From Candidatus Bathyarchaeota archaeon (GTDB lineage: Archaea; Thermoproteota; Bathyarchaeia; 40CM-2-53-6): a stretch of 64,000 nucleotides of DNA. The stretch spans positions 672,001 through 736,000 of the forward strand of contig CAVSBL010000002.1 of NCBI GenBank assembly GCA_963726255.1. The letters are read 5' to 3'. How positions within the stretch are numbered: the first letter of the stretch is position 1; each line of letters begins with the position of its first letter. The translations under genes were made by a program, and so were the position numbers. Below the pieces are notes generated by a model. That model was not told the DNA's origin and did not search any database. It saw nothing but the letters and a program-made list of their open reading frames with translations. This document shows positions 12,902 to 49,366 of the stretch, piece by piece.

Positions 12902-12903
12902 CC

Positions 12904-31260: not shown

Positions 31261-31599
31261 CTGAAGGGACTAAGAATGAGCGTATCGTTCAAAGACTTCG
31301 AAAAACTAGAGTTCAAAGTTGGCAAGATTACAGCCGCAGAAAAGATCACGGGAATGAAAAAGTTACTCAAAGTGCAAGTGGATTTGGGCGATAGGACCGC
31401 GCAGGCCATCGCAGGTGGCGCAGAATTCTATGAACCCATCAGCTTCCTCGGCAAGCGAGTCATCGTACTAACCAACATGGAAACAAAGACGATCGCCGGC
31501 GTCAAGTCCGAAGTCATGCTACTAGCAGCAGACTTGCAAGGAAAGCCAATCTGGGCTACAGTCGAAGCGGACGTCCCAGCGGGTACAAAAGTTCGCTGA
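30985..31599 (+). repeat. Left arm of ~615-bp inverted repeat (3' serA + tRNA-binding gene)
   Basis: Reverse complement of 44517-45131 aligns from 'agcagcat(c/g)aagaaaggagc' through the tRNA-binding gene stop. Confidence 0.92.
31276..31599 (+). CDS. tRNA-binding OB-fold protein (Trbp111/CsaA/MetRS C-terminal-like)
   Basis: DFEKLEFKVGKI, VDLG, GVKSEVMLLAA. Confidence 0.9.
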   Translation: MSVSFKDFEKLEFKVGKITAAEKITGMKKLLKVQVDLGDRTAQAIAGGAEFYEPISFLGKRVIVLTNMETKTIAGVKSEVMLLAADLQGKPIWATVEADVPAGTKVR

Positions 31600-31774
31600 A
31601 CATTATGACTAGTCACGGCGCCACATTTGTCGGTGGCGGCAAAACCCGTGTCGCCCGGTTTTTCCTGCTTTCTGGAAAGCGTTCCGAGAAAGTATGCGAA
31701 AGCCTGGGTGCAGGGTGACACCCAAATCAGCAAATTGTCAGAATGACAAGGTGAGTGGCGAAGCGGGTCTCCTC

Positions 31775-32248
31775 TCATATGTTCTGGATGAAGCGGCTAA
31801 ACGATTTTGTCCGTCGCATGTACAGGAGGCTGAAGATTAATGAGTCAACGACGATCCCAACCAATGTCCAAATGTCCATGATTGTGCGTGTCGTAAGAAA
31901 TCGGAGCAAGGATACCACAGCGTAGACGATCACTCCTATAGCGAGAGCACCAAGGGAAATTGAACGAATATGGAACTTGTTCACGAACCTGACGGCCACG
32001 ATTCCCAAAATTGCACCCACCCCTGCAGAGATCACACTAAACAATACAAAACCGAACAAGAGGATGAGCACAACCATTTCTACCGTCAGCCCTAGAAGCT
32101 TTACCACCGGTAGCTGCAAATCGAGTGTGGCCATGTACGTCAAGGTCAATTTACCATCCGACGCTAGAAACGAAACACCGTACTGCACCGTAGGGTACAG
32201 AACACCTGCTACCACTCCAGACTTGATGCCCGAGGGACTATCCTTCAT
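31775..32248 (-). CDS. 4-TM membrane protein, putative immunity partner of the main Rhs tip
   Basis: Starts 10 bp after the Rhs stop; paralog of 39266-39787 (SGIKSGVVAGVLYP vs AGIKAGLIAGLLYP). Confidence 0.7.
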   Translation of the reverse strand: MKDSPSGIKSGVVAGVLYPTVQYGVSFLASDGKLTLTYMATLDLQLPVVKLLGLTVEMVVLILLFGFVLFSVISAGVGAILGIVAVRFVNKFHIRSISLGALAIGVIVYAVVSLLRFLTTRTIMDIWTLVGIVVDSLIFSLLYMRRTKSFSRFIQNI

Positions 32249-32258
32249 GGATTCGCCT

Positions 32259-35200
32259 TCATTTGGGAGGGCAGCTTCCTCGTCCGAGCATTTCGAGCAG
32301 GGTTCCTGTTACTACCAGGGAGAGGCCAACTCCGATCGTGATATATTCAACAACTTCGTACTCGGGCGCAAATTCCACGGGGAATCCGAATGGGCCCGGG
32401 ATACTGGCTGGTAGGGGAGGACTAGGATTGATCGCGGCGTTGAAGATATTCCATCCAGTCGATACCATATTTTGCCCTGTTGTATAGGTCTCGCATGAGA
32501 ATCGTGGTGTAACGATCCCGATAAAGCCCAATCCAGGGGTCGCTACGGTCCCGTAATTCAATGCTAGTAGTGCGCCGCGGGGGATGTGAACGTTCGTTGA
32601 TGCTGCGGGGTCGGATGATGCTGTGTTGGCTGCTGCGCCAAACGTCATCCTAAGCCAAGCGCGGAATCGCATCGGGTGCGAATGGTGGCTCGAATACTCC
32701 TCATAAGCGTCTTCAAGGTCTCGAAGCTCCTTGTCCAACTCTTCCCACGACCTTTCCGCCGAAGCGCCCGGAACGCGTTCTATGTCGTACGCGGCTTCTG
32801 GAAGCTTCGCCCCGTCCGGGTCCACGTAGCGTTCAGGGTTGTTTAGGGCGTAGGTATAGCGGTTAAGCGATTGTGGGTTCAAGTAGTTCGCCTGCGCCAA
32901 GTCCAAAGTCATGAACCTGCCGGATTGGCTGTCGTAGTACCTGTATCCGTAGTACGATAAGCCTGTGGCCACATCCAACTGTTTCCCAGTGAACTGGAAC
33001 ACCTCCGCTCCGGACGTGGCGTACGTGTTCCCGTAAGGCAGATACTTCGCGGAGAACACCGGCTGGCTCGCAGCCTGTGTTTCTAGTCGTACGCTTCCTA
33101 ACCGGTCTAGGTGGTAGAAACTGCTAACCCCCGCCTGAACTTTCCCAATTAGTAAGCCACCTGCGAAGACAATGTCACTCGTCAAACCCGTCGTCAAATC
33201 CTTCACGTAGCATGGATCCCACGAGCCGGCCTGGTAATCGTAAATCGTTGTGTCCGTAGCAGTGGTCTGCACCCTCCGCCCATCCCCATCATACAACGCC
33301 TGAAGGGCTGTTTGCCCGTTGAGCTGGACCTGTTTGAGGCGGTTCTCGTAATCGTACGTATAACTCCAAGAACTTGAGCCAGAGGTCTTGCTGACCGTGT
33401 TCCCATTATTGTCGTACGAGTAGCTTGTGGATCCTGCGGACATTAGCTTATTGTATGAACCGTACGAGTAGGTCGTGCCAGTACCGTTCACAACAGCGCT
33501 TAATCGATTTCCAACTTCGTCGTACGTGTAATCTAATGACCCGAACGGCCCGCTCGCACTTGTAAGCCTGTTCAGGTCGTCGTAACCATACGTTTCCTGA
33601 CCGTTGTTAACGCTTGTGGGGTTGCCGTTCGGGTCGTACGCGTAATTCAGATCGAGAAGCGTTGCGGTAGCGTTCCATGTGTGTATGCCTGTGATGCGCG
33701 CGAGTTGGTCGTATGAGTAAGCGGTTTGAACTCCATTCCCATAACTGATGGTGGCGGGTTGGTTGTTCTTGCGGTATGTGAGGGTGGCGGCATTGCCGAC
33801 GGTGGTAATGCGGTTAAGCGCGTCGTACTTGTAGCTCAGCACGTAGCCGTCAGGGTAGGTGAGTTGAATTAGGTTGCTTGCCGCATCATACTGGTAGCTT
33901 AACGTGTAAGCCTGGCCGTTTATGGTTCGTGACTCGGATAGGAGGCGGCTGCGGGGGTCGTAAGTGTAAGTTGTTGTGGCCGAGCTGTCGGTCATTTGAA
34001 CTCGGTTGCTGTCCTCGTCATAGGAATATTGAACTGTAGACGTGTCAGGGTAGGTTATCTTGGTCAACCGGTTGATCTCGTCATAAGTGTATGTTATCAG
34101 CGTGTTGTTCTGTGTTCTTCGGGAAACTAGGTTGCCAACATTGTCGTATGTTCGGTTTTCGAAGGTTGTGTCGGGGAATTTGGTCTGCACTAATCTGTTC
34201 AAATTATCATAGAAGTATGAGGTGATCTGATTCTTTGCGTCTGCAATTTGGAGTAGGTTGCCTACTGAATCGAAGGTATAGCTAGCATCGTAGCTTTGGC
34301 CGCCCACGTGTTCTGTGACGGTTACAAGGCGGTTCTGCCAGTCGTAATAGTAATCGGTCGGATGCCCCTTTTCGTCGAACGCGGTTACCTGGTTGGAGGC
34401 GTCGCTGTAAACCCACTGCTTGAAGGTTCCATCCGGATGATTCAGCGTAAGCATACGCCCGAAGAAATCGTATGTGTACGTCGTAACGTTACCGGTTGGG
34501 TCAGTGTAAGTTTTCACTTTATCATTCCAGTAGTAGGTGGAAAGTGCTGTTGAGTAGGGGGCACCGTTGGCATAGGTCTGCGTTTGAGTTAGTCGTCCAA
34601 GCCCGTCGAAATAGGATCGGGTATAGTTATTGTTCTCATCGTATGCCGTCATGATGTTGTTGACATCGTCGTACGATGTTCGGCGCTGAGCACGCACGCC
34701 CCCAATTGCAGGATAAGTAATCGTGGTTAGTCTGTCGATGGCGTCGTACCCATAATTCGTAACGTTCCCCGATGGTGATGTGACCTGTGTTCGATCACCC
34801 GTCGTAGAGTTGTACGCATAGCTTGTTGATAGAGTTGTTCCGGCCACATGTTCGTCTGCTTGCGTCAAATAGGCGTACTGGTAGGTTGAGGAGAACGTGT
34901 AATTCACGTAATGGCCATTCGCGTCTACTCTCGATACTCGGTTGCCATAGCCAGTGGTATCGTACGTGTACTTAGTGGTTACCCAGACGGTTCCATTCAG
35001 GCTGTTCTCCTGTAGTAGGTTTCCTGAGCTATCAAATTTGGAGTAGAGTGCTTCGCAGAAACCGTAGCCGACTCCGTTCGGAAACTCAACCACCGCGGCG
35101 ACACGGTCGTGTATGTTGTCGCCAACGTTGTTAGGGAAGAAATAGGTAGAGCAACCGTGCTGGGTCATATTGAAGTTGGTGCCGTAGAAATCAACGAAAT

Positions 35201-35530
35201 GGCCTTGGTAGGACGTGTTGGCGTAGGAGTAGAAGGTCTCCCGATAACTGGTTGGATTTACTGCGAGGCGTCGGTAAACTAGGTTTGCCCAGTCGTCGAA
35301 GCTGAAGTAGTTGGTGTAGCTTACGCCAGAGCCGGCGGGGAAAACTGTCACCTGATTAACCTGTCCGTTGACGTTGTACTGTTTGACTACTTTTCTTATC
35401 GGCTGAGCTTGAGAGTTCTCTGTTGTCTCCGTCACATTTGTTTCGGTGAACAGATAATTCACGTACCCTTGGACTGATGAAGTCTCATCAGAAAACGTGA
35501 TACTGCTAGAAGTGAGAGCATTGGCTGGAT
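32259..35530 (-). CDS. Rhs/YD-repeat protein, C-terminal part: YD repeats, Rhs core, variable tip
   Basis: Dozens of YDxxGRL/YD repeats, YYGYRYYD...GRF, NRYTYALNNP..YVDPDG. The frame stays open upstream of the 35462 GTG to the frameshift near 35533. Confidence 0.92.
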
Positions 35531-38425
35531 CTACCCGTAATTGAAGGTCTCCTGCCGAACTCTGCCACTTGGAAGGTAGACTGTCTGCTGGCTCACATGC
35601 AATTGTTGTACCTCGGTTCCAATCCGAAGAGCGTATGCATAAGCGTAAGAAGTGTACCCGCCAGTTGGGTAGGTTATCTTAGTAAGATAGCTGGGACCGA
35701 AGGACGATGCGTATTCATAGCCTGTCACTCGACCAACCGGGTCCTGCACGCTGACAAGGTTCCCATTCGCGTTATAATTGTACGTCCATATCCGACCACC
35801 CGCATTAACCGACGTGACACGACCGTTCGCATCATGATTGAGGGTGATTGTCCGGCCAATGGTGTCCGTGACGACGTGCAGTCGGTTGGAACTGTACGTG
35901 AGTGTGATTGAATTGTGCTGGGTTCGGTCTTGGATTTGAGTGAGCCATTTGTTTGAATTGAAACTGTAGACCGTTCCAGATTTGTCTATGAGGGTGAAGG
36001 TTCCGTCTCCGTTCGCCGTAAGTATGAATTGTTCACCTTGATGGTTCACGAATCGACCGTTAACGTATGTAACCTTGTAACCTTGCCCGCCTGTAAGATG
36101 GATGTAGTTCGTCCCCATCCATGGCCAATCAAGGCTCCAGCCGACGCCTAGGTCGGCGTAGGGATAGTTCTCGTATGCGTAGGGCTGGCCGTAGGGCATC
36201 CGAAACACACGGGTAAACGCCAAAGGCCCATTATCGCTCAAGCCTCGCTGTGGAATGGAGAAGTCGGTCTGCGTTATCGTCAGTAGACCGTTGTAGGGTG
36301 AGACGTACTCCTGCAAATTCTGATAATACTCTCCGTACGGGATCAGCCCTTCCTGATCCCAAGGGTCGGAGTACGGTGACCAGACCTGTTGAACAGCAGG
36401 AAACGAACTGAACTTTACCGTATACGGGCCTGACCCCTCAGTCCACACGCCGGTTACGAGGCCGTTTGCGGAGTCTACGGCGGAACTGAGGAGTCCGGGC
36501 GAGTTGAACGTCGTGGCGTTGAGTGGTGTTAGCGTGGGACCCCAACCATGGAGGATCGTGTGTTGCCGGTAGTAGATTGTGTTTGAACTCACATACAAAA
36601 CATTGAGGCTGTTGCGAGTGCCCAGAGAGATTGCTGGGCTACTACTGGTAGCGGGAGCAAGCGTGGCGTAGCCGCTCCAGGTGCCGTTATTCCAAGACCG
36701 ATATCGGAGTGAAAGGTCCGAGTATACGTAGACTAGGTTCACTTGGGTTGTGTTTGAAACTGCAGATCCAAAGTTATGCCACATATCTGGCGCGGAGTCT
36801 ACAATCGAGACTGTGCTCCATGCTGTTGACCGTGCATAATAGATAATTCCATTGGCAGCATCATGAAAGATGCCAAGCATTACGCCGTTGGCCAACGGTG
36901 ACAATATCGGGAAATAGTTGCAGCAATTAACCGTATGCACTAGGTTATCTGATTTCACCGAAGCGGACGAGCCCCAACTTGCACCGTTCACATCGGTACT
37001 CTTCTTGGCGAGCAAGGTTCGGCTTCCCTCATATATGTACGGAATACAGCGCGTAAGCGGTTGCGATTGCGCCACACTGCCACAACCTTCGTTAATCCTG
37101 CTCTTGACGTACCACGTGTACATTGTTGTGATCTGTCCGTCAGTGCCAACTGCAATATTCGGGTCTTGGAGATTTGACCAAACGGCAACAGCTCCGTTAT
37201 CTGTGTACGTACGCGTATCCACCGTTACAATCGAACCCCAACCGATCGAGGTTCCGCTCACGTTTCCTTTCCGGAAGTATAGGTAGGCTGTTGCAGCTGT
37301 GGTTCCTGTTGCACTCGTGCCGGCAACGGCATAGACGCTACCTGAGTCATACCAGATCGCCGTGGCCGAATACGACCATAATGTCCCCACGTAATTCCAT
37401 GTCTGCCCGTCACTCGAATATTTGTAGACCGTAGAGGAGCCATTGTAGAAGAAGACCCAGTAATTCGAGCCGTCGAAGAATATATGGCGTTGATAACTCT
37501 CCGCTGTAGCAGAACCTACACTAGATTGGCCTACAATTGTTGGGTCAATTGCGGACACGTTTGCGGGGAAGGTTATGACTGCGGCTGATCCAGATATGTA
37601 TCCGAAGAGAGGGATGCGCCCGAAACCTATCTTCGCCTTCAAAGCGGAGTCACTCCAATCGACCAAAGCCCACGTTCGCCACGTCTCTGGGTTGGGCGTT
37701 AACCCCAGTTCAAGCTGGGTTTCATTCATGCTCACGGGTGTGACGCTTGTGTAATTCTCGAAGCTCAGCCCTTCCGACATTGCCTTGAACCTTGCGAAGG
37801 CTTTGGGTCCGTGAACAATCCACAGGATGTTGAAACCATGATCAGTAAGCGAACTGGCGGCGTTGAGGTGAATTGACATCTTCGGACGGTTCACTTTGTC
37901 AAAAACAAAACCGACTTGAAGTGTACCAACAACGGCTCCTTCCGATCGTAAATTGACTGAATAACGAAAATGATTGCCGTTCAAACTCGCCATGTCAATC
38001 GTATAGTTCGAGAAGACTATGGGCGATCGGAAAGTAGAGTTCACATAGAAAATACTGTGAGTCACGAGCGAAGTGCCGTCCCTATAGGCGAAACTCATGA
38101 AAGGCTGAGTCTTATCGAAGACGTACTGGCCGAAGGATGTTTTGAAGGCCATTCGACCGGGTAGGTTCTGGTAACTTGGGTCGATTAACGGAAATTCCTG
38201 AAATAGCGTCGAGACCGTTGGCTGCGGCGGAACAATCGGAGAATAAGAGTTCGGGACTGAAATACCCGGATTGCTTGCTTGCACTGGCAGCGTTCTAATT
38301 GCTGGAAAGGCTCGAACGATCCCTTCCCAGTAGATTGCCATGGAAATTGTGAGGCATAATAGGACGGCTGCTCGCAGAACGGTTAGTACCGTAGTCCGAC
38401 GACATGGCCTAGTCATCTCTAACAA
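35531..38425 (-). CDS. Rhs/YD-repeat protein, N-terminal part: signal peptide, beta-rich domains, start of Rhs barrel
   Basis: N-terminal signal/TM; 'VSPYNGLL...DFSIP..G...FTR', 'LGVGWSL' and YD repeats. Joins the downstream part if one G is added at 'tac ggg tag'. Confidence 0.88.
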   Translation of the reverse strand: MLEMTRPCRRTTVLTVLRAAVLLCLTISMAIYWEGIVRAFPAIRTLPVQASNPGISVPNSYSPIVPPQPTVSTLFQEFPLIDPSYQNLPGRMAFKTSFGQYVFDKTQPFMSFAYRDGTSLVTHSIFYVNSTFRSPIVFSNYTIDMASLNGNHFRYSVNLRSEGAVVGTLQVGFVFDKVNRPKMSIHLNAASSLTDHGFNILWIVHGPKAFARFKAMSEGLSFENYTSVTPVSMNETQLELGLTPNPETWRTWALVDWSDSALKAKIGFGRIPLFGYISGSAAVITFPANVSAIDPTIVGQSSVGSATAESYQRHIFFDGSNYWVFFYNGSSTVYKYSSDGQTWNYVGTLWSYSATAIWYDSGSVYAVAGTSATGTTAATAYLYFRKGNVSGTSIGWGSIVTVDTRTYTDNGAVAVWSNLQDPNIAVGTDGQITTMYTWYVKSRINEGCGSVAQSQPLTRCIPYIYEGSRTLLAKKSTDVNGASWGSSASVKSDNLVHTVNCCNYFPILSPLANGVMLGIFHDAANGIIYYARSTAWSTVSIVDSAPDMWHNFGSAVSNTTQVNLVYVYSDLSLRYRSWNNGTWSGYATLAPATSSSPAISLGTRNSLNVLYVSSNTIYYRQHTILHGWGPTLTPLNATTFNSPGLLSSAVDSANGLVTGVWTEGSGPYTVKFSSFPAVQQVWSPYSDPWDQEGLIPYGEYYQNLQEYVSPYNGLLTITQTDFSIPQRGLSDNGPLAFTRVFRMPYGQPYAYENYPYADLGVGWSLDWPWMGTNYIHLTGGQGYKVTYVNGRFVNHQGEQFILTANGDGTFTLIDKSGTVYSFNSNKWLTQIQDRTQHNSITLTYSSNRLHVVTDTIGRTITLNHDANGRVTSVNAGGRIWTYNYNANGNLVSVQDPVGRVTGYEYASSFGPSYLTKITYPTGGYTSYAYAYALRIGTEVQQLHVSQQTVYLPSGRVRQETFNYG

Positions 38426-38496
38426 CCACGCCGCAAGAACTCTGAATGGAGTCGCGTACGTCTGTTCTTAAGGCACTTGGCTACTTACAGTAAATA

Positions 38497-39269
38497 CGCT
38501 GCGGCAGGTTGCGTTGAACATGCAGCTTGTGTTTGAGGCGTTGTATGATGGTGACGGACGTCGAATCGAGACAGTCGCTGGGGACACGTCCATCTACCAT
38601 TACCAGGCCGGCTCCTGGGACCCAGCCTACGTGAAAGATTTGACGACAGGCCTATCGACCAACATCATCTTCGCCGCGGGCTTACGAATTGGAAAGGTGC
38701 AGGGTGGGGTTAGCAGCTTCTATCACTTGGACAGGTTGGGAAGCGTCCGCCTCGAAACCCAGGCTGCGAGCCAGCAGGCTTTCTCAGCGAAATATCTGCC
38801 CTACGGGAACACGTACGCCACATCAGGAGCGGAGGCGTTCCAGTTCACTGGGAAACAGTTGGACGTGGCCACAGGCTTATCGTACTACGGGTACAGATAC
38901 TATGACGACCAGATTGGCAGGTTCCTTACTCAAGATAAAGGTAAGTCTAATCTCTTCACCCCTCAGACGCTAGACAGATACTCGTACGTAATCAACAATC
39001 CTAACGTCTATACCGATCCAGATGGGCTGGCTATTGGTGATGAATTTGGTTTCGGATGCGGTCCTTCGGGGCTATCGTATGATTTATTTGAATTAGGGAA
39101 TGAAATCCTCCGAGCTCTTGGTCTTCCAGCGTTTCATGATCCGTTTAGGAGTTGGTGCGAAGGCCCGTTCAAGGACAATGAAAGGAATTACAACGAGAAA
39201 CACAGTCAAACAGATAGATCACAACTTGAGCATATTAAAATCTCGGCTGGGGTGAGTGGCTGGTATTGA
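38497..39269 (+). pseudogene. Orphan Rhs core + alternative tip, cassette 1
   Basis: About 175 codons homologous to the main Rhs core (ALYDGDGRR...DPDG), then a unique tip; lacks the N-terminal body. Confidence 0.85.
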
Positions 39270-39787
39270 CATCGCTAGACACAATTGATTCGCCGCGCAA
39301 GAAGCACACACGCATCGGTGGATCGCATTCCGTTCGAAGGGAAACTTCCGCGGGAATTAAAGCCGGCCTTATAGCGGGCTTGCTTTATCCTGGCTTGTCC
39401 ATAATCCTGATGTTAGATAGTTGGCTTGCGTACATATCATATACTATAAAGACCAACGTCCCACCGATGCCCATCCGAGAAGCGATCTTTGTCCTAGCTC
39501 TATTGTTCCTGATAGTAATCGTTGTCTGCGCATTTCTTGGAGCGATTGCGGGTTTCGCATTCTCTAGGTCGGTGAACAGGCTTCCATTTCATTCAATTTA
39601 CGCTAAGGCCGTTGTTTCTGTGACTTGCCTGTGGCTTTTGCTTTTCCTGGTCAAATGGTCGATCTCACGTGACGAATATTTGCCTCAAGACTTTGTAAGT
39701 ATGGCTTTGAGTGCCCTGGTCTTTGCCTACCTTTTTGGTCGGTGGAGCAAGTCAAAGACCCTATTGAAATCCGATATGCCTTTGTGA
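39266..39787 (+). CDS. 4-TM membrane protein, putative immunity for cassette 1
   Basis: Overlaps the cassette 1 stop; paralog of 31775-32248. Confidence 0.7.
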   Translation: MTSLDTIDSPRKKHTRIGGSHSVRRETSAGIKAGLIAGLLYPGLSIILMLDSWLAYISYTIKTNVPPMPIREAIFVLALLFLIVIVVCAFLGAIAGFAFSRSVNRLPFHSIYAKAVVSVTCLWLLLFLVKWSISRDEYLPQDFVSMALSALVFAYLFGRWSKSKTLLKSDMPL

Positions 39788-39810
39788 AGAACAGCGCCCA
39801 CTCTTTCTTG

Positions 39811-40467
39811 AGGCGGTTGGGGAGCGTTCGGCTTATGACCCAAGGGGCGAATCAACAAGGGTTCTCGGCGGAATACGTGCCCTACGGGAACACGTACTCC
39901 ACATCAGGCGCCGAAACGTTCCAGTACACAGGAAAACAATTGGACGTCCCAACTGGGTTATACTATTATGGGTACAGGTACTATGACAGCCAATCCGGAC
40001 GATTCATCACTCAAGATACCACGCAGCCAATTCTCGTGGCACCCCAGACTCTAAACCGATTCTCATACGCTCTGAACAACCCAAGCACAAACAGGGATCT
40101 GGACGGGCGTCAGTCTGATCCGATCGAGTGGCTGGGACCGGTAATCGCGGCCGGTATACTTGGTCCCGAAGCTCTCGTTGCGGCAGCTGCTATATTGGGG
40201 ATCATTACATTAGCCGAATGGGCTTACAATGCGTATAATGGATCCCGGCCGCCGGGTCTATACTATGAACCACCAAACCCGGTTCAATCGCCGGACCAGC
40301 TCGGAGCAGCTGCCGAACAATACATGGAACACCTGCGTGTTCAACGGCTTGAGGCATCGCATATTGCTAAAGAAGTCTTAGATGCAGTCGAGCATATGCT
40401 CGAGGGAAAGATGAAGGACTTCGGCCTTAAGGGTCCCCCGGACAAGGTCCACGGTGGGTGGATATAG
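39811..40467 (+). pseudogene. Orphan Rhs core + alternative tip, cassette 2
   Basis: Homology starts at RRLGSVRL; YYGYRYYDSQSGRF...NNP...DLDG, then a hydrophobic tip. Confidence 0.85.
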
Positions 40468-41273
40468 AGCGGAGCTTCCTCATCGATTGTATGGTTTGGA
40501 TTCACAGGAGTGGGCGAGAAATCATCGACGTTACTTCGTACGCGTTTGCCATACCCATTGAGATATCGTCATTGATTCTTGTGTGGGGCCTATTTCGGTT
40601 TAGACAATCAACTAAACCGGCTGAGCCGCCTAAATATGAAACCTACGAAGTATTTCTCCCAACCGCCTCCATTTTTCTTGCAACGCTTGTTGTCTGGATT
40701 TTGGATTCAATTTCAGTGAACCCTTTCGGGGTTTTCCCCAAGCCATCTCAGAGTTCCATTGTCATGATCAGCACTCTCTTCTTACTCGCTCCGACGATTA
40801 TTATACTACGTGCGACGAGGAGAGGTTTCCGTTCGGTGCGTCTGACGTTCGCCGGCACTGGAATCTCCTCATTACTGGGTATTCTAGCATCTCTAATGCT
40901 GCTGATTCCAACCGCGCTTCTCTCCCGCTTCTTCTTGGTTGCGTTAAGTAGGGTAGATTCGATTTATCTCATTTCTCTCGTTTACAACGCGTTCTGTGAA
41001 GAACTGTTCTTCAGAGGCCTCATGCAGACCAGATTGGAAAGCTTCTTCGGATCCAAGACTGGGCTCTTTATAACCGCAGTAATCTTCAGTTTATCTCATG
41101 CCCCTTCATGGATGTTAGTTAGACAACTTTCAGCAGAGGCGTTCATTGCGAATGTGATCCTTAGTCTTCCGTTTGCAATATTGCTAGGTTACATAGCACG
41201 GAAATCAGGTAACCTGGTTGGCTCAACGATAGTGCATGTAGCAAATGACCTTCCTCTGCTATTGCTGACTTAA
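40458..41273 (+). CDS. CPBP (CAAX protease/Abi self-immunity) intramembrane metalloprotease
   Basis: EELFFRG, FSLSH and HVAND motifs intact. Confidence 0.88.
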   Translation: MDIERSFLIDCMVWIHRSGREIIDVTSYAFAIPIEISSLILVWGLFRFRQSTKPAEPPKYETYEVFLPTASIFLATLVVWILDSISVNPFGVFPKPSQSSIVMISTLFLLAPTIIILRATRRGFRSVRLTFAGTGISSLLGILASLMLLIPTALLSRFFLVALSRVDSIYLISLVYNAFCEELFFRGLMQTRLESFFGSKTGLFITAVIFSLSHAPSWMLVRQLSAEAFIANVILSLPFAILLGYIARKSGNLVGSTIVHVANDLPLLLLT

Positions 41274-41356
41274 GCAAGCAGGGACAAATGGGTCTGTTTT
41301 CTCTCTTATTCTACCTGAAAAATCACATCATATGGGTACAGATGCTCACAGGATGA

Positions 41357-42061
41357 TACACTGGGAATTCATTGGATGTTGCGACAGGCTTATCGTACTA
41401 CGGGTACAGATACTACGACAGCGAATCAGGGAGGTGCCTAACGTTGGACCTGGTGCAGACGGATTACTTGAACCCGCAATCGCTTAACCGCTACACATAT
41501 GCCTTGGATAATCCTATTCGATTTGCGGACTCGGACGGGCTAATGTTCTATGATGTCAACGAGAACGGGGAGAGAGTGGCGGGCGGAATAGAGGCGGTTG
41601 AACGAACACTCTCAGACGTGCCCGGCAGAGGAGAATCCAGAGACCAATTCAGCATAGAGATTACCCATCAAATCGCCACGCAATTCGGCAGCGTAACAAC
41701 GACGACCTCGAGTATGAGCACCGTACCAACTTCATGGGTGAATACAAGCGCACAAACAACCGTAACCACACTAGGATCGCAGGCAACCACAATAAACACA
41801 TCGACTCCAACAACCTCTACAATAGGCCCACCACCAATGCTACAACCTGCGCACACTATTGTGGTGACCGTATCCACGCAAGGGACTACGTACACTGGAA
41901 TAGTCATTTGCCGTAAGTCTACCACATATGTCTTGGAAGGACTGGCCATGGTTGGTCTCAGTATGGGGGCTGAACCGTTCTTCAGTCATGGACTATGGGA
42001 GATTGGTGTAGGAATAGTCGAACGCTTATTCGACCCCAACGATCCCGAGCGGTGTTCATGA
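41357..42061 (+). pseudogene. Orphan Rhs core + alternative tip, cassette 3
   Basis: Homology starts at YTG..LDVATGLSYYGYRYYD; core ends DSDG; then Thr-rich linker and hydrophobic tip. Confidence 0.85.
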
Positions 42062-42100
42062 GCATTATGCAAATTAAAATGTGCTTCGTCGACAAATGCC

Positions 42101-43075
42101 TTGCGTGTCGTGGTTAAAGTCTTGGAACAGGTCTTTGTCGCGTTACTTGTCGTCTCTTTCCTGTTCTCAATGCCACCTGCCAACGCTACTTCGTATAACT
42201 TACAGGTGGGTGCATTTGGAGATGCTCTCTCAATCGGTAATCTCGGAGTTCGAGCTGAGATACGAACTCATGTCTACAACGGCAGCGGCATTGGAGTCGA
42301 TGCTTTCTGGGTTGGGGACATCCTCGATAATGGGGCCTTTGTTCAGTTCGGCTATCTCATAAGTGAGAAAGGGACTTACTGCACCTACGGATTAATGGAT
42401 CTGGGAACGACTTTTTCGTGCTTAGACGGCGTAATCGAAGTTAACGCTTCGGTAGCACTCTGGGGCTGGGAATATTGGCCCAACGGTACCGGCAGTAGAT
42501 ACTATTTCGGTGCAGGTGCTCTCAGCGGCAGTAATGGAACCTGGCATCTCTATAGTATAGTGCCTAACTCGGGAGGAGAGTGGATCTTCTTGCTTGATGA
42601 TCAGCAAGTCTCGAACGCGACTTTTCCTTCGACGATGTCAAGGGACGAGGCAGTCGTTGCCGCAGAGAAGGTGGCCTCCTCCACAACCCCGGGTCCTTTG
42701 GGGCCGGTTGAGTTTCGCAACTTGAGTTATCTTAAGCAGGATGGCTGGCATGCGGTTTCGGCGCTGACTGCGATCGTGAACTGTGGTGTGAATCCGAACT
42801 GCATTCCCATACCCTACGGCGTAGCCATCCTGGGGCCTAACCACGTCATAGCGGGCTCGTCGATACCTCAACCGAAAGACGGAACTCTGCTATGGAGCAG
42901 TCCCGGAACTGGGTCTACTGTCACCAGCTCCTCGCCAACAGCCTCCTTCACAAGAATTACACTTCCAATGACGCCTGAACTATTCTATGGCGCAATAGCT
43001 GCAGCCGTAGTTACTGGATTGTTGATGATTGAATTCATCATTATTCCACGAAAAAGACGAACTAGGAAGCGCTGA
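42101..43075 (+). CDS. Exported, C-terminally anchored beta-sandwich protein; partner of cassette 3
   Basis: Signal peptide, C-terminal TM plus RKRR tail; paralog of 47002-48021. Confidence 0.8.
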   Translation: MRVVVKVLEQVFVALLVVSFLFSMPPANATSYNLQVGAFGDALSIGNLGVRAEIRTHVYNGSGIGVDAFWVGDILDNGAFVQFGYLISEKGTYCTYGLMDLGTTFSCLDGVIEVNASVALWGWEYWPNGTGSRYYFGAGALSGSNGTWHLYSIVPNSGGEWIFLLDDQQVSNATFPSTMSRDEAVVAAEKVASSTTPGPLGPVEFRNLSYLKQDGWHAVSALTAIVNCGVNPNCIPIPYGVAILGPNHVIAGSSIPQPKDGTLLWSSPGTGSTVTSSSPTASFTRITLPMTPELFYGAIAAAVVTGLLMIEFIIIPRKRRTRKR

Positions 43076-43104
43076 TCTGAGTGTGGTACAGTCAAATCTT
43101 GTGC

Positions 43105-43641
43105 GAGCGTTACGTGGACCCGGATGGGGCGAAGCTTCCCGACGCCGCATACGACATAGGACGCGTTGCGGGGGCGTCGGCGGACACGTCGTCGGATGAC
43201 TGGAATAAGGAGCTTCGAGACCTTGCAGACGCCTACGCGGAGTATTCAAGCCACCACTCGCACCCGATGCGATTCCGCGCTTGGCTTAGGATGACGCTTG
43301 GCGCACCAGGCAACACGGGGCCATCCGCAGCCTCAACGCCTTCAATTTCGAAGAACATGATGCTCAAGCTGACGCGAATGGAGAATTACCTCTCAGCATC
43401 TGATCCCAGTATGGCGACTGCCATCGGTGTTTTTACGTTCAGTGGCACTCCAACGAATAACATTGCACAAGAAAGCCAAACAATTTCGACTGAAGCATAT
43501 TGGCATGCTATGGGGGAGGTCGCTATAGTGGCCATCGAAGCAATTGCTATCATACTCGGGATAGGCCCCTGGGGCGGGCCCCTTGGTCCGTTACCCGACC
43601 CATATACAGGAATTGGGCTCGGTCCACAACCATCGGCATGA
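43105..43641 (+). pseudogene. Orphan Rhs tip, cassette 4 (shares linker with main tip)
   Basis: ERYVDPDGAKLP...HPMRFRAWLRMT is nearly identical to the main tip, then diverges. Confidence 0.85.
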
Positions 43642-43721
43642 GCACGATTGATTGAGTAACTGGTGAGAAAAGGTCGATAGACATAGTCCGAAACGCAAGT
43701 AGAGGTTCGAGAGAATAGGAA

Positions 43722-44018
43722 ATGAACCTGCACTCGAGTCGAACTCTGATATCCCTTTTCGTGGCTCTCTACTCGCTATCAATTTTTCTGGTTTACGTTG
43801 ACTTTTCTCTCAACGCCGATCCGACTCTAAAGATAGCCATTGCCGTGTTGGCTCTCTCAATGCTGGTAATCTCAGCAATTCTCTTTCTGTGGGGTCATTA
43901 CAAGTTTGGGCGCTCATGGGCGTTAAGGGACACGCCCATTGGGCACTGCAGTTCGTTGAGCATGAGCGCGATAGGCATCTTGGGCAACAGAGGTCATAGG
44001 AACGGCGCCGTCGATTAG
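43722..44018 (+). CDS. Small 2-TM protein, putative immunity for cassette 4
   Basis: Two hydrophobic helices; directly downstream of cassette 4. Confidence 0.55.
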   Translation: MNLHSSRTLISLFVALYSLSIFLVYVDFSLNADPTLKIAIAVLALSMLVISAILFLWGHYKFGRSWALRDTPIGHCSSLSMSAIGILGNRGHRNGAVD

Positions 44019-44206
44019 CATGCGAAGAAGAACTGCCACGCTCTGGTCACCAGCATTGTCACCTAGATTGATGGGTTCCTGCGTGTAGACGAAATTGTCT
44101 TACCGTTTAAATTGGGCAAACGATTCTTAGACCGTTTTGTTCCCTGTCCGTTTGGCAGGAACGCTTTGGAATATCAAAGAAACAACGGCAGACCATTCAG
44201 AGCTTT

Positions 44207-44385
44207 CAACTCCCCCAAACAAATAACAGATCAATTCCAATGAAAACCAAGAGCACGAAGATGCCGCCCATCCTCCAGTCCTTCTGAATCATCGCCGCCC
44301 TGAGAACATAGTACGAAACCAACAGCAATCCTACGGCCGGGAGCAGTAAAACCACGCCGCCGTTCCAGATGATCGAAAACCAATT
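44207..44385 (-). pseudogene. Degenerate membrane-protein fragment
   Basis: One frame reads WFSIIWNGGVVLLLPAVGLLLVSYYVLRAAMIQKDWRMGGIFVLLVFIGIDLLFVWGS* with no in-frame start. Confidence 0.3.
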
Positions 44386-44516
44386 TTCCTCCCGTGAGTA
44401 AGAACGTCCATGCCTCTATGATACTTTTCATTAATTAGAAGTTTGCGAAGATGCAATCCGATAGAAAATAATTCGAGGTGCAGCGCTACCGGTGATACTG
44501 GGACTGATTCGCGGCT

Positions 44517-44840
44517 TTAGCGAACCTTTGTGCCCGCTGGGACGTCCGCTTCGACTGTGGCCCAGATTGGCTTTCCTTGCAGGTCTGCTGCGAGGAGCAT
44601 GACTTCGGATTTGACGCCAGCGATGATCTTTGTCTCCATATTGATTAACACGATGACTCGCTTGCCGACGAAGCTGTCGGGTTCATAGAACTCTGCGCCG
44701 CCTGCGATCCTCTGCGCAGTCTTGTCGCCCAAGTCCACCTGTACTTTGAGTATCTTTTTCATTCCCGGGATTTTCTCTGCGGCTGTTATCTTGCCAACTT
44801 TGAACTCTAGTTTTTCGAAGTCTTTGAACGATACGCTCAT
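44517..44840 (-). CDS. Second copy of the tRNA-binding protein
   Basis: 99/107 aa identical to 31276-31599 by manual comparison. Confidence 0.88.
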   Translation of the reverse strand: MSVSFKDFEKLEFKVGKITAAEKIPGMKKILKVQVDLGDKTAQRIAGGAEFYEPDSFVGKRVIVLINMETKIIAGVKSEVMLLAADLQGKPIWATVEADVPAGTKVR

Positions 44841-44855
44841 TCTTAGCCCCTTTAG

Positions 44856-45131
44856 CTATTTGCTGGAGAGCGTGCGTATCAGTTCTTCAGCGACAATTGT
44901 GCTCTCCAATCGTTGCGCTTCCACGGTCTGGGCACCGACATGCGAGGTGCATACGACGTTTGGCAAGGTTACGAGTTCTTTCTCCCAAACGTCAACGGGC
45001 GGCTCCTTGTGAAAGACATCTAACCCAGCCCCCGAAAGGCTGTCTGATTTGAGGGCTGCCAATAGAGACTGCCCGTCAACTATGTCGCCTCGAGAAGTGT
45101 TGACCAAGATTGCTCCTTTCTTCATGCTGCT
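44856..45131 (-). pseudogene. 3' fragment of a serA homolog
   Basis: SSMKKGAILVNTSRG...LIRTLSSK matches the last ~91 aa of 30322-31260; 5' part absent. Confidence 0.9.
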
Positions 45132-45134
45132 AGA

Positions 45135-45287
45135 TTCCTTTTTGCCAACCCTATATTCATAGCAGCAATTGCGATATTCTGCATCGCAAGTATGGGCCCC
45201 TTGGGGTTGGTTCCAATTGGAGTATTGGTCTTCGCATGGGGGTTCTCTGTATATGTTGATTGGCAGGTAAACCAGAATTGTCATTAA
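45135..45287 (+). pseudogene. Decapitated tip remnant, cassette 5
   Basis: Startless frame FLFANPIFIAAIAIFCIASMGPLGLVPIGVLVFAWGFSVYVDWQVNQNCH*, abutting the serA fragment breakpoint. Confidence 0.5.
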
Positions 45288-45408
45288 CGATAGGACATTT
45301 CGTCCTACTGGAACAGAATTCTCATACTAAGGGCATATCAGTTGAACTCACGTTACCAGGGAGGGAGTTGTCCTGAGAACAGAACGATCCTTCGTTGTCG
45401 ATACCGAC

Positions 45409-45948
45409 GTGAACAAGGTACGGCAACTCCTCATTTCCGGCATTTCGGGCATGGGATACAAGCGTGTTAGCACTGACGAACTGAAATTCGAACGCGGATC
45501 AACTTTCGCGAGGTGGTTGTCCTTTTCTATGGGAAATTGGCCGACGACGGTGACCGTAACATTAACTCCGTTTGGTCAGGAGAAAACCGACGTTCTTGTT
45601 TCTCTAACCGTCCGCTACCTGCTTGATGTTCCTAGCGTTAATCCAGTGAGTCATGAGTTCTGGATTCGGGAGCTTGATCGTATGGAGGCTTACGCAAGAG
45701 GGGCGATTCTTCCGTCAGAGGATTCATACCACGCATTGACTCGAGCTTGGAGGAATCGCGAATTCCTCGGATTCGTAGCCATCTTGGCGGTGTTTTGCAT
45801 AGGCGCCGCTGTCATAAGCGTTACAGCCGTTCTGTTCGGGCTCGTGGCTTTGCCACTGATTCAGTTCGCCCTAGTATCATTTGTAGCTATGATTGTGATT
45901 ATGCTGGTTGTCATCATCTACAATCTTAGAGAGGTTAACGTGCACTAA
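45409..45948 (+). CDS. Membrane protein with two C-terminal TMs, putative immunity for cassette 5
   Basis: Soluble alpha/beta N-terminal domain plus 2 TMs; same strand and position as other partner genes. Confidence 0.65.
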   Translation: MNKVRQLLISGISGMGYKRVSTDELKFERGSTFARWLSFSMGNWPTTVTVTLTPFGQEKTDVLVSLTVRYLLDVPSVNPVSHEFWIRELDRMEAYARGAILPSEDSYHALTRAWRNREFLGFVAILAVFCIGAAVISVTAVLFGLVALPLIQFALVSFVAMIVIMLVVIIYNLREVNVH

Positions 45949-45956
45949 CCGCGTGC

Positions 45957-46880
45957 CTATCGACTGATGTTATCTTCGCGGGTGGGTTGAGGGTTTGGAG
46001 GGTTCAGGCCGGAGTTAGCAGCTTCTATCACTTGGACCCGTTGGGAAGCGTCCGCCTCGAAACCCAGGCTGCGAGCCCGCCCGCGTTCTCAGCCAAATAC
46101 TTGCCCTACGGTAACACGTACGCCACATCAGGAGCGGAGGCGTTCCAGTATACTGGGAAACAGTTGGATGTTGCGACAGGCTTATCGTATTACGGGTACA
46201 GGTACTACGACAGTCAATCGGGCAGGTTCCTGACCGTGGATTTGGCGCAGGCGGACTACTTGAACCCGCAAACACTCAACCAGTACACCTACGCTTTGGA
46301 TAATCCTATTCGATTCGCGGACCCCTTCGGGTTAATGTTCTACGATATTAACGAACGTGGGGACGTAGTGGCGGGCGGAATAGAGGCAGTTGAACGAACA
46401 CTCTCAGACGTACCCGGCAAGGGAGAATCCAGAACCCAATTCAGCACAGAAATGAACCATCAAATCGCCGCGCAATTTGGGAGCGTAGCAACAACGATGA
46501 CCTCTGGGATGACAACTGTAACAACTTCATGGGTGAATACAGGGGCACAAGCATCTCTAACTACAACGACAGGGTCGCAGACCGTGACGATCAGTACGTC
46601 GACTACAACCACTGTTACATCCGCTCCTTTGCCATACCCTGTACGAGCATTCCCCACAACGACGAGTGTAGTCACCGTCTCGACCTATGCGACTAGTTAT
46701 ACTGGTACGGTCAACACTGCTGCAGTCGATATGACTTACGAGATAGCAGCCCATATCGCTATCGCAATTGGCGGAGTTTATTTCGAATTTAATGTGACCG
46801 GAGAAGCAACGCTGCATGACGTCATCATCTGCGGAAAAGTCGGTGGTCTACCAGGATGCCCTGATCCAACCATCTATTAA
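45957..46880 (+). pseudogene. Orphan Rhs core + alternative tip, cassette 6
   Basis: Homology starts at LSTDVIFAGG; core ends DPFG; linker shared with cassette 3, different end. Confidence 0.85.
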
Positions 46881-47001
46881 TCGCTCAACATTCCACAATG
46901 CAAGCGATTACTTTCTGAAGCCAACTGTAGAGTTAGAGTCGAAGGACGACAAAATTGGAAAATGAAAACGACGATTCTGGGTAAAGACTTGAAGTCTCGG
47001 A

Positions 47002-48021
47002 GTGGTCGGCATGGCTATTGTTGACGAGTCGCTATCTGTTCACGCGTTGTGGCGGACCGTGGCACGATGCCTGTTCCTCTTATTCATTGCAATTCTTTTG
47101 CTTTTTTCAATCCGGCCCACAAGTGCGCTAACCTACAATCTCCTGTTAGGTGCAAGTGGTGACAATGGATCATTTGGGAGCTTAGGTGTTCGAGCAGACA
47201 TGCGAACGCGTGTCTACACCGTGAACGCTCCCGATCTCGACGACAGCTTCTGGGTGGGCGCTACTCTACGCAATGGTTCAGGCATTCAGTTCGGTTACGA
47301 CATACCGGTTTCCGGAACTTATTGCATGAGCGGTAAGATTGAAGCCGGAGCCTCGTTCACGTGCAAGGGTGGCTCTGAAACAGTTAACGGCTCCCAGCTA
47401 GTTTGGTTTTGGCAATATTCGCCCGACATTAGCGTTATAGACGATTACTATTTTGGCACGGGGTTGCTCGGATCGACAATTTTGAACGGAACCTGGCATA
47501 CCTTTACGATTATGCCAGATTCACAAAACGCATGGGATTTCCTGCTTGACCACCACCAAGTCGCGAATGCAAGCCTTCCGATTTTGCAGTTAAGTTCCGC
47601 TTACTTTGTTGCCGAGAAGGTTACGTCCTCTCCAGCTCCAGGTCGATTAGGGCCGGTGGAATTTCGGAACCTAGCGTATTTGAAGGAAGACGGTTGGCAC
47701 CTAGCGACCGCATTAAACGCCATCGTGAACTGTCCTGGGAATCGAAGCTGCGTCCCTATTTCATACGGCGTGTCAGTGATAGGGCCTAACCACGTCATAG
47801 CTGGGACGTCGATACCTCAACCGAAAGACGGAGCCCTGCTGTGGAGTACTGGGACCGAGTCTACCGTGACCGCCTCCCTGCCAACAACCTCCTTCACGAG
47901 AAGTACGCTTCCAATAGCGCCCGAACTCTTCTACGGTGCGTTAGCTGCAGTCGTGGTTGCTGCGTTGTTGATGATTGAATTCGTCATTCTTCCCCGGCGA
48001 AGGCGAGGCAAGAAGCGCTAA
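47002..48021 (+). CDS. Exported, C-terminally anchored beta-sandwich protein; partner of cassette 6
   Basis: Paralog of 42101-43075 (FWVG, QFGY, NGTWH, AEKV, LGPVEFRNL). Confidence 0.8.
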   Translation: MVGMAIVDESLSVHALWRTVARCLFLLFIAILLLFSIRPTSALTYNLLLGASGDNGSFGSLGVRADMRTRVYTVNAPDLDDSFWVGATLRNGSGIQFGYDIPVSGTYCMSGKIEAGASFTCKGGSETVNGSQLVWFWQYSPDISVIDDYYFGTGLLGSTILNGTWHTFTIMPDSQNAWDFLLDHHQVANASLPILQLSSAYFVAEKVTSSPAPGRLGPVEFRNLAYLKEDGWHLATALNAIVNCPGNRSCVPISYGVSVIGPNHVIAGTSIPQPKDGALLWSTGTESTVTASLPTTSFTRSTLPIAPELFYGALAAVVVAALLMIEFVILPRRRRGKKR

Positions 48022-48158
48022 CAAATGCTATTTGATTTCTACTTCTCTTATCGTGAGAGCAACTCTCACCATCGAGGCAGTGGTTACATATTCTCGGTAT
48101 TCTATGAACTAAGGCACCATATTCTCCTAAACCTCCCCTGCGCCTCAGAGGAACAAGA

Positions 48159-49366
48159 TTGGACTTCACCTTCACCCCCGAACATGAGCTATTTCGCAAG
48201 ACCATCAGGGAATTTTGCAGGAAGGAAATTGAGCCGCACTCTAGGGAAATGGAACGCAACGCCCACATGCCCGATTCAATAGTTCGCGGGCTGGGCAAGA
48301 TGGGCCTGTTCGGCCTGTCCATTCCGGCGAGTTTGGGGGGTCCGATGCAGACTCCATTTCCGCAGGCATAGCAGGGGAAGAGATAGGCCGCGCCGACCTA
48401 AGTTGTGCGACGGCGGTGCTTTATCTCGTGCCAATTTCATGGAGCCACGTTCTAGCCAAGTATGGCACACCGGGATTGAACAAGAGGGCATTGCCTAAGA
48501 TTGCAGCAGGGCAAGGCTTTCTCGGCATAGCGACAACTGAAGCCGGAGTAGGCTCTGATTTAGGGAATATGAGCACCACCGCGAAGAAAGTTGGAAACGA
48601 ATACGTGTTGAATGGGGAGAAGATGTACATTAGCGGTATCCGCGAAGCGGCAGAGCAGATGCGGGATGGGAGTGGGTACTTGGTCTTAGCCAAGACTGAT
48701 CCGGCGAAGGGGACGCGGGGGATGTCGTTCTTCTACGTACCCTTCAACGAGACTGAAGGTCTCACACCAAGTTACCTGGAAGAGATGGGAAGGAGGGGCA
48801 TGTCTGCGGGGGGCTTCCTGATGAAAGACGTTCACGTGCCTGCGGAAAACATGCTTGGAGAGGAGAACAAGGGCTTCTACTATGCAATGGAAGGTTTCGA
48901 TTACGCACGAGCAATCATTGCAGTAGTTTGCGTAGGTGCAGCTATGGCTTCGCTCGAGATGGGTGTAGAGTACATAAAGCAACGCAAAGCGTTCAATCAG
49001 CCCATCGCTCGATACGAGGGCGTACAATTCAAACTCGCCGAAGACTACGCGCGCGTAGATGCTGTCCGCTTGTTGGCCTACAGGGCACTCTGGATGTATG
49101 AGCAGGAGCGGCGGAACCACAAGTTTGATCGGTTTGAGGTGAGCAAAGCAATTGCTGAAGCGAAGATGCTAGCTCCCGTGGTGGCATTTGAAACGATTAA
49201 CGATGTCTTGCAGTGGTTCGGCGCTTTCGGGTACACTCTGGACTGCCCGATAGAGATGGCTTTGCGCGGGGTACGCTCGTACATGCTGGCTGAAGGGTCT
49301 ACTGAGATCATGAAGATGATCGTAGCAAGAGAGCTGCTTGGAAAGGAATTCATAGCCCATCACTAG
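48159..49366 (+). CDS. Acyl-CoA dehydrogenase (1-nt frameshift in a G6 run near 48335-48340)
   Basis: MDFTFTPEH..., TEAGVGSD, LNGEKMYIS, RKAFNQPI, GAFGY, EGSTEI. Adding one G restores LGGSDADSISAGIAGEEIGR. Confidence 0.85.

Follow-up and report, generated by a model that had tools for sequence, protein, structure and literature searches.

WapA of Bacillus subtilis is a Sec-exported YD/Rhs toxin, which carries an N-terminal export signal and has neither PAAR nor VgrG. In shufflons and other invertible systems (R64 Rci, Gin/Cin, and the hsdS and tail-fibre systems), alternative C-terminal segments are inverted to a constant 5′ body. Archaeal polymorphic toxin systems were reportedly predicted by Makarova et al. 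in 2019. Earlier predictions of this kind are cited in the available parts of PMC8416519 and of a preprint (bioRxiv 10.64898/2026.07.27.741052), and the available text of Zhang et al. (2012; PMC3482391) lists archaeal cases only from Euryarchaeota and calls them rare. The displacement of Rhs C-termini in bacteria was described by Jackson et al. (2009; PMC2935791). The homology that rhs-main shares with rhs-CT-orphan in Salmonella Typhimurium LT2 is given as 522 bp at 95% in the available text of PMC3967940, and Tse5 of Pseudomonas aeruginosa is presented as a membrane-depolarising Rhs tip in that of PMC10684867. The present analysis concerns a stretch of 64,000 nucleotides (nt) from a Candidatus Bathyarchaeota archaeon (assembly GCA_963726255.1, contig CAVSBL010000002.1, positions 672,001 to 736,000 of the forward strand), hereafter the window, which holds an Rhs/YD toxin island. 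The minus strand carries a long Rhs gene, and an array of spare tips with partner genes lies head to head with it on the plus strand. Judged by sequence, the Rhs polymorphic toxin and its orphan features are of a known kind, and the head-to-head orphan array is unusual.

The island was read, as the probable explanation, as a predicted Sec-type Rhs/YD toxin/immunity arsenal, the inverted geometry of which is the scar of a structural event and not a switch. A surface-exported Rhs protein of about 2055 amino acids (aa) would enclose a short C-terminal tip, which would be released at the PxxxxDPxG end of the core and neutralised in the producer by the small membrane protein whose gene follows immediately. 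The block on the plus strand would consist of displaced orphan tips and their membrane partners, and would chiefly keep immunity genes and silent tips in reserve. Given the hydrophobic or glycine-rich segments in several tips, and partners that are membrane proteins throughout, the likeliest target of the predicted toxins is the cell membrane or envelope, and the immunity proteins would be embedded in the membrane or anchored to it. Recombination of the main core with the core of a cassette would invert the intervening DNA; such crossovers should be rare in evolution and proceed via general recombination.

Main Rhs Gene and Predicted Export

The main locus consists of two genes, as follows.

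32259 to 38425, minus strand: main Rhs/YD toxin gene, with RHS/YD repeats and TIGR03696; core end at about 32811, tip0 at 32810 to 32259.
31775 to 32248, minus strand: imm0, a 157-aa candidate partner of the main tip with three transmembrane (TM) segments, directly behind tip0 (gene order and hydropathy).

Both genes had been noticed in a preliminary description of this DNA, and both were borne out. PF05593 matched the C-terminal open reading frame (ORF) in nine stretches (E 4.5e-60) and the N-terminal ORF with an E value of 1.5e-15; TIGR01643 was also matched. The Rhs-associated core TIGR03696 was located at aa 807-884 of the C-terminal ORF (E 3.4e-18). In translation, it terminates in PxxxxDPxG and is followed by tip0, which comprises 183 aa.

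In the window, the main gene reads as two ORFs, 38425 to 35531 (964 aa) and 35462 to 32259 (1067 aa), which are separated by a 1-nt frameshift near 35535. Positions 30000-49500 were compared with short-read contigs from four public runs, all belonging to a single metagenome study of freshwater sediment; the sample with the best match may be the source of the DNA. Runs X2 and X3 both had contigs with one additional base after 35535, with which a loose end of run X1 was consistent. The extra base merges the two frames into an Rhs protein of about 2055 aa. The full-length homologues (2035, 1956, and 1809 aa) spanned 92-99% of the N-terminal ORF. The frameshift was treated as a consensus error because the short-read contigs carry the extra base and the full-length homologues fit the joined frame. 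The main Rhs gene is probably intact, with a product of about 2055 aa.

The N-terminus of the main protein has an Arg-rich start followed by a hydrophobic segment at aa 13-31, as judged by hydropathy. The N-terminal 700 aa or so had no family match, and their homologues were only a few metagenomic or archaeal proteins; an Asp-box motif was not matched by regular expression in this part. Cell-wall binding repeats were not detected in the main Rhs protein. A PAAR domain was found neither in the protein nor in the genome, with the PAAR control positive in three genomes, and this places the protein outside the class of Rhs proteins that a type VI secretion system (T6SS) delivers. The hydrophobic N-terminus and the lack of PAAR would therefore fit a Sec-type, WapA-like, T6SS-independent export of the predicted toxin, which had been suggested beforehand. 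The imm0 family comprises imm1, the partner of cassette c1 (blastp imm0/imm1, E 4.5e-9), and the partner of the main gene at L032, one of the loci of the closest homologues (L032 partner/imm1, E 8e-5). A TATA box was not clearly established upstream of the main gene.

Plus-Strand Cassettes and Their Partners

The plus strand carries the following features, where "core module" denotes a module with a TIGR03696 core fragment.

38469 to 39269 (ORF 38514 to 39269), plus strand: cassette c1, a core fragment (from aa 696 of the main C-terminal ORF) and tip1 (79 aa); TIGR03696 and self-BLAST.
39266 to 39787, plus strand: imm1, the 173-aa partner of c1 with three TM segments, related to imm0.
39742 to 40467, plus strand: cassette c2, a core fragment and tip2 (119 aa, one hydrophobic segment); TIGR03696.
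40458 to 41273, plus strand: imm2, an Rce1-like/CPBP intramembrane protease-family protein with six TM segments (PF02517, E 1.1e-17).
41357 to 42061 (core module 41372 to 42061), plus strand: cassette c3, a short core fragment (57 aa) and tip3 with a Thr-rich linker; TIGR03696.
42101 to 43075, plus strand: par3, with a signal peptide, a concanavalin-like beta-sandwich, and a C-terminal TM anchor (predicted structure and Foldseek).
43081 to 43641, plus strand: cassette c4, a tip with about eight core codons; it includes the right arm of inverted repeat I4 (43105 to 43327), and its C-terminal half is unrelated to tip0.
43722 to 44018, plus strand: a 98-aa ORF with two TM segments (hydropathy), the candidate partner behind c4.
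45409 to 45948, plus strand: a 179-aa membrane protein of no known family, upstream of c6.
45942 to 46880 (core module 45987 to 46880), plus strand: cassette c6, a core fragment and tip6; TIGR03696.
47002 to 48021, plus strand: par6, a paralogue of par3 (57% aa) by sequence comparison.

Four cassettes (c1, c2, c3, and c6) combine a core fragment, a tip, and a membrane partner, and c4 is a tip-only cassette. The four correspond to orphan cassettes, with a 5′-truncated TIGR03696 fragment, a tip, and a partner but no shell. According to the self-BLAST results, all homologies between the main gene and the cassettes were inverted, and all five cassettes lay upstream of the main gene, on the other strand. 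The usual orphan position, downstream of the main gene and in direct orientation, was not the one found here. The homology with the main core extended over 398 nt at 81% for c1 (inverted to 32907-33304), 198 nt at 74% for c2, 181 nt at 80% for c3, and 334 nt at 82% for c6; moreover, c6 was 80-84% identical in nucleotides to parts of c3 and c1.

The inverted placement of the cassettes had been stated in the preliminary description, and the self-comparison confirmed it and uncovered two mirror repeats, I1 and I4; the copy of the chromosomal flank in I1 had been missed. Of the six modules of core, tip, and partner that were proposed there, c1, c2, c3, and c6 stood; c4, the module at 43105, contains just some eight codons of the core, and the supposed remnant at 45135 is not an Rhs module but the end of a 90% inverted copy of a dehydrogenase 3′ end and a tRNA_bind gene. 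The modules begin close to the main start codon, as was claimed (about 70 bp upstream); the homology of c1 starts 43 nt from it (at 38469). The tips were described as different, which holds insofar as they are unrelated or only half-related; N-terminal halves are common to tip3 and tip6 and to tip0 and tip4.

Hydrophobic segments (one to six) were present in all seven partner ORFs. Tips 0, 2, and 4 each had one hydrophobic segment, and tips 1, 3, and 6 had none at the threshold; hydrophobic or glycine-rich segments also occurred in the tips of the homologues P0002 and P0004. A search with the tip6 region (aa 117-297) returned no match among proteins of 521-2000 aa, a range that excludes Rhs proteins of about 2035-2055 aa. 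Against 1.84 billion representatives, the same region gave three matches, among them itself and two short partial sequences. The tips are near-orphan sequences.

The core-end motif DPxG was altered to DLDG in c2 (40100-40115) and to DSDG in c3 (41525-41540); these changes may represent decay of the self-cleavage site in the two orphans. Tip1, tip2, and the tip of P0002 terminate in G-W-[YI], and the partner ORF overlaps the tip stop (39260-39269 and 40458-40467). Furthermore, the ending PGCPDPTIY is common to tip6 and the direct orphan of L032. Conserved tip ends may mark the junction of tip and partner for cassette exchange or translational coupling.

The structural model of par3 had a predicted local distance difference test (pLDDT) value of 88. 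Its top Foldseek matches were neprosin and scytalidoglutamic peptidase (E ~1e-5, TM-score 0.45-0.56), and GH16 glucanases were also matched. The family of par3 is widespread in archaea as secreted, C-terminally anchored proteins, some of which have PKD domains. In a 46-sequence alignment of this family, Q82, E189, and E204 were invariant or nearly so; the nearest fold is that of the glutamic peptidases neprosin and eqolisin. An immunity role of par3 and par6 is plausible from the sequences because the pairing of tip and partner is conserved in c3, c6, and L032.

Mirror-Image Repeats and Origin of the Inverted Layout

Two inverted repeats enclose parts of the island in mirror symmetry. Their arms, apart from the right arm of I4 within c4, are as follows.

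30973 to 31600, plus strand: left arm of I1, the 3′ part of a dehydrogenase gene (30322 to 31260) and the tRNA_bind gene (31276 to 31599); self-BLAST and profile matches.
44516 to 45144, minus strand: right arm of I1, a second tRNA_bind copy (44840 to 44517) and a dehydrogenase 3′ fragment (ORF 45284 to 44856); inverted repeat.
32612 to 32834, minus strand: left arm of I4, covering the N-terminal part of tip0; longest exact run 39 nt.

I1 is an inverted repeat of 627-629 nt, 90.5% identical, with a longest exact run of 59 nt. It derives from the resident 2-hydroxyacid (phosphoglycerate-type) dehydrogenase gene, and the tRNA_bind gene was copied whole. I4 covers 223 nt of tip0 and tip4 at 86%, corresponding to the first 74 tip codons or so, beyond which the tips are unrelated. 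Outward from the head-to-head junction, the same order was found on both sides: the N-terminal part of a tip (I4), an unrelated C-terminal tip part with its partner, and then the tRNA_bind gene with the dehydrogenase 3′ end (I1). The right-hand block (c1 to c4, the second tRNA_bind copy, and the dehydrogenase fragment) mirrors the main locus at its 3′ end together with the adjoining chromosomal flank. This mirror-image copy of a housekeeping flank marks a one-off structural rearrangement.

The synonymous divergence (dS) was 0.34 for I4, 0.41 and 0.24 for the genes of I1, and at least 1.2 for the main core against the cassette cores, for which the ratio of nonsynonymous to synonymous divergence (dN/dS) was 0.12-0.17. 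Since the values for I4 and I1 are similar and well below those of the cores, the mirror unit was taken as one block of a single, younger age. The core values, in turn, indicate that the cassette cores derive from anciently diverged Rhs genes.

The left arm of I1, its right arm, and the nearest relative (genome G021) were nearly equidistant on 500 aligned columns (90.2, 91.8, and 90.8%). In this comparison of left arm, right arm, and G021, shared derived sites numbered 4, 5, and 4, and lineage-specific changes numbered 20, 25, and 17. The latter counts are comparable, and hence the right arm is not faster-evolving. The dN/dS of the right arm was 0.28 for the truncated dehydrogenase piece and 0.11 for the tRNA_bind copy; these low values imply that most of the divergence accrued under selection. 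Moreover, the divergence of the right-hand block (dS about 0.24-0.41) matches that of a sibling lineage. The pattern, as far as the sequences tell, mildly favours import, with a sibling lineage as the source, over an inverted duplication that arose in situ long ago. An allelic Rhs island of such a lineage may have supplied its 3′ end, captured in inverted orientation, a history to which a little less than an even chance was assigned. An old in-situ palindromic duplication, followed by the loss of the second Rhs body, would be an alternative history and was considered rather unlikely.

Boundaries, Host, and Distribution of the Island

The boundaries of the island were taken from a contig of a relative and from the empty site in related genomes.

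31598 to 48074, strand not applicable: whole Rhs island.

The island is strain-specific and measures 16,477 bp. A contig of run X2, which belongs to a relative with about 91% identity (depth 14), connects 31597 directly to 48075 and skips these 16,477 bases. An empty site was found in six of the eight relatives' stretches compared (G015, G017, G014, G004, G011, and G021, the last consisting of two overlapping contigs), where the dehydrogenase and tRNA_bind genes are followed immediately by an acyl-CoA dehydrogenase gene; the stretch of G018 had no acyl-CoA dehydrogenase match at the site. In the co-occurring relative of run X2, the island is replaced by a 22-nt spacer with a perfect palindrome. 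The corresponding hairpin is absent from the window, and the spacers between the genes of more distant relatives were not alignable with that of G021. In one sample, the contig depth of the island-free relative was the higher (14 vs. about 5). Downstream of the island, the acyl-CoA dehydrogenase gene is broken in the window by a 1-nt indel at 48326, where the contigs have an extra base; alignment with the relatives places its true start at about 48160.

The host is a TACK-group archaeon. Archaeal markers inside the window included transcription factor B (TFB), crenactin, pantoate kinase, A-type ATP synthase subunits, and a digeranylgeranylglycerophospholipid reductase-like gene. The C-terminal Rhs ORF as a query matched none of the 22 other genomes of the genus. 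In a survey of the class with TIGR03696, for which the Bacillus subtilis and Methanosarcina acetivorans controls were positive, matches occurred in 35 of 401 genomes (about 9%), 32 of them above the cut-off. The sister genus was positive in 13 of 22 genomes and the host genus in 0 of its 22 other genomes. Relatives were also sought in genome contigs by an alignment-derived pattern (A2), and its 87 matches included no relative.

Layout of Related Loci

The closest homologues of the main protein are encoded at three loci (L030, L031, and L032). At L032, the main gene and its partner precede a c6-type orphan in direct orientation, which is accompanied by a par homologue. At L031, the main Rhs gene is followed by two CPBP genes, which are homologues of imm2, and L030 ends soon after the core. 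An inverted core fragment was found at none of the three within 10.0, 3.4, and 0.7 kb upstream. In the class as a whole, 13 contigs had at least two core matches within 20 kb, and 11 of these had them on the same strand only; inspection of two of the 11 confirmed a main gene with direct orphans. The inverted layout is accordingly no trait of the lineage; a comparison with related genomes had been proposed in the preliminary description.

The two mixed-strand contigs were the present one and C22 of G237, an unrelated genome of the class. The locus of the latter, L033 (G237:C22:141001-161000), contains head-to-head Rhs 3′ fragments at 8477-15161 with inverted arms of 354 nt at 99%. The arms are about 2 kb apart and are flanked by further inverted stretches (86-100%), and an additional direct core copy is present. 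Neither a full-length Rhs gene nor a nearby recombinase was found at L033. It gives the class a second inverted Rhs arrangement, independent of the present one. An AbiE toxin-antitoxin pair was observed near its fragments.

Alternative Explanations

The inverted block could be an artefact, i.e., a mis-join or chimera of the islands of two strains in a long-read metagenome assembly. The consensus is imperfect, with at least two 1-nt indels relative to the short-read contigs (35535 and 48326), which suggests a long-read assembly with residual indel errors; a relative with about 91% identity is present in the same samples, and the right flank arm is as diverged as a sibling strain. However, short-read contigs without mismatches spanned 31299-32158, 32652-33945, 38349-38627, 38873-40198, 41338-42025, 41780-43099, 43928-44817, 44982-46069, and 47289-48384. 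These spans include the passage from tip0 through the core into the body (32652-33945) and the head-to-head junction (38349-38627). The reference junctions are thus bridged piecewise by independent contigs, which argues against a chimeric assembly. In addition, the repeats are diverged enough for unique assembly, and the co-occurring relative has the empty site. The artefact, which had been raised beforehand as an alternative, was therefore regarded as extremely unlikely.

The orientation of the cassettes means that any crossover between the main gene and a cassette inverts the DNA and keeps every tip and partner, a geometry that was anticipated in the preliminary description and agrees with the self-BLAST results. 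A recombinase-free, non-destructive re-arming of the single Rhs body by general recombination, at the core end or at the shared N-terminal tip part, is conceivable on this basis but was judged improbable. In its fullest form, as a reversible arsenal, homologous recombination between the main core and the inverted core of c1, c2, c3, or c6 would swap tips, and subpopulations would deploy different toxins; the chance of this was likewise put low. Each of the four cassettes with a core fragment is inverted relative to the main gene and matches it in frame. The longest exact runs against the main gene were 27, 15, 20, and 20 nt for c1, c2, c3, and c6, respectively, and recombination between main gene and orphan was demonstrated experimentally in Salmonella according to the available text of PMC3967940. 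However, the core repeats are only 74-82% identical over 181-398 nt with dS of at least 1.2, and they contain no homogenised tracts, which frequent exchange would leave; the Salmonella substrate measures 522 bp at 95% (PMC3967940, available text). The layout is also not conserved, with an inverted core at none of the three closest loci and mixed strands in two of the 13 multi-core contigs, and the DPxG motif is changed in two of the four orphans. Strand-changing joints, including the expected junctions of the Rhs body with cassette tips, were absent among the joints listed in the contigs of the four runs, although contigs drop rare forms; the loose ends listed represented library adaptors, the indel at 35535/6, the empty site of the relative, and a downstream strain difference. 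No recombinase was present among the 69 ORFs scanned in the window, as had been noted before, and the result extends to the 98.5%-complete genome, in which PF00589 (Phage_integrase) and PF00239 (Resolvase) had no matches (controls positive in 14/14 and 12/14 genomes). With the Phage_integrase model, even a XerA-type recombinase was undetected in the host genome. Short conserved inverted crossover sites bounding the segments were not found either; the only inverted repeats were coding homologies of 74-90%. The proposal of a reversible, shufflon-like arsenal was hence not upheld. A two-state flip at the younger mirror repeats is a further possibility, in which a crossover at I4 would invert 32835-43104 and exchange the C-terminal part of tip0 and imm0 for that of tip4 and the 2-TM ORF, and a crossover at I1 would flip a 12.9-kb block and alter no gene. 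The best substrates that the locus offers are I4 (86%, exact run of 39 nt) and I1 (90.5%, exact run of 59 nt), and tip0 and tip4 share about 74 codons and then diverge fully, as expected at a swap point. The dS of 0.24-0.41 between the arms nevertheless indicates no recent exchange or conversion, no such joint was among those listed in the contigs, the passages from the 2-TM ORF to the second tRNA_bind copy (43928-44817) and from the tRNA_bind gene to imm0 (31299-32158) were bridged in the reference form only, and no recombinase was found in the window or genome. This flip was considered very improbable.

The preferred explanation, a predicted toxin/immunity arsenal with the scar of a structural event, has several points against it. 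On the side of function, no tip matched a Pfam or NCBIfam toxin family, and the immunity role of par3 and par6 is uncertain because they belong to a large family of archaeal surface proteins, members of which also occur with PKD domains. On the side of history, no lineage that carries an island at this site, and could have been the donor, was found (the Rhs core occurred in 0 of the 22 other genomes of the genus), none of the histories constructed does without an inverted insertion or duplication, and c6 and the 179-aa membrane gene upstream of it lie outside the mirror unit. Other points speak for exchange. In 40-nt windows, the main gene and c1 agreed at 92-98% over a stretch of about 100 nt just before the core end, in which 27 and 26 nt matched without interruption; this hyperconserved stretch could support recombination. 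The lack of strand-changing joints is weak evidence, since contigs lose rare variants, and it is compatible with rare inverted isoforms. Finally, the near-identical inverted Rhs arms of G237 indicate that inverted-repeat exchange or duplication happens at archaeal Rhs loci; they would be a second trace of recombinase-free switching, if that reading holds.

Significance and Comparison With Known Systems

The locus is a complete, well-delimited example of an archaeal Rhs system, with a probably intact main gene, five spare tips, membrane partners, and a co-occurring relative in which the site is empty; archaeal Rhs toxins have so far only been predicted. With the core domain in about 9% of the class genomes sampled, it suits first experiments on contact- or proximity-dependent antagonism in archaea. 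The inverted geometry is of consequence only if there are inversion isomers; it would then provide non-destructive toxin switching as an alternative to the deletion-based orphan switching of bacteria, and no tip or immunity gene would ever be lost. As the evidence stands, the locus would mainly document the building of an island by capture of allelic DNA with flanking genes.

Inverted Rhs orphans were not described in PMC2935791, in the available text of PMC3482391, or in the literature searched, which did not cover subscription journals. The phrase "opposite orientation" in another Rhs paper (PMC4028081) concerns rRNA operons. In contrast to the euryarchaeal cases in the available text of Zhang et al. 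(2012), the present host belongs to the TACK group, and the core domain occurred in 35 of 401 genomes of its class.

As in shufflons, the alternative C-terminal coding segments are inverted relative to a constant body. Unlike shufflons, the locus has no site-specific recombinase in the window or genome and no short crossover sites, its repeats are diverged, and no isoform was seen among the contig joints listed. The proposed membrane action of the tips, which was deduced from sequence, would resemble that of Tse5 as presented in the available text on that protein. The hydrophobic N-terminus, the lack of PAAR, and the combination of an Rhs shell, a tip, and a candidate immunity gene recall WapA, from which the locus differs in having no detected cell-wall binding repeats and membrane proteins as candidate partners.

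Bacterial Rhs main and orphan loci offer the closest match. They share the YD/RHS shell, the TIGR03696 core with PxxxxDPxG, the variable tip with its partner behind, and orphans composed of core, tip, and partner; the present host is an archaeon, and no PAAR was found. The homology of 181-398 nt at 74-82% contrasts with the 522 bp at 95% of LT2 in the available text of the Salmonella study. Unlike in Salmonella Typhimurium LT2, the orphans and the main gene here lie head to head on opposite strands, such that a crossover inverts the DNA instead of deleting it.

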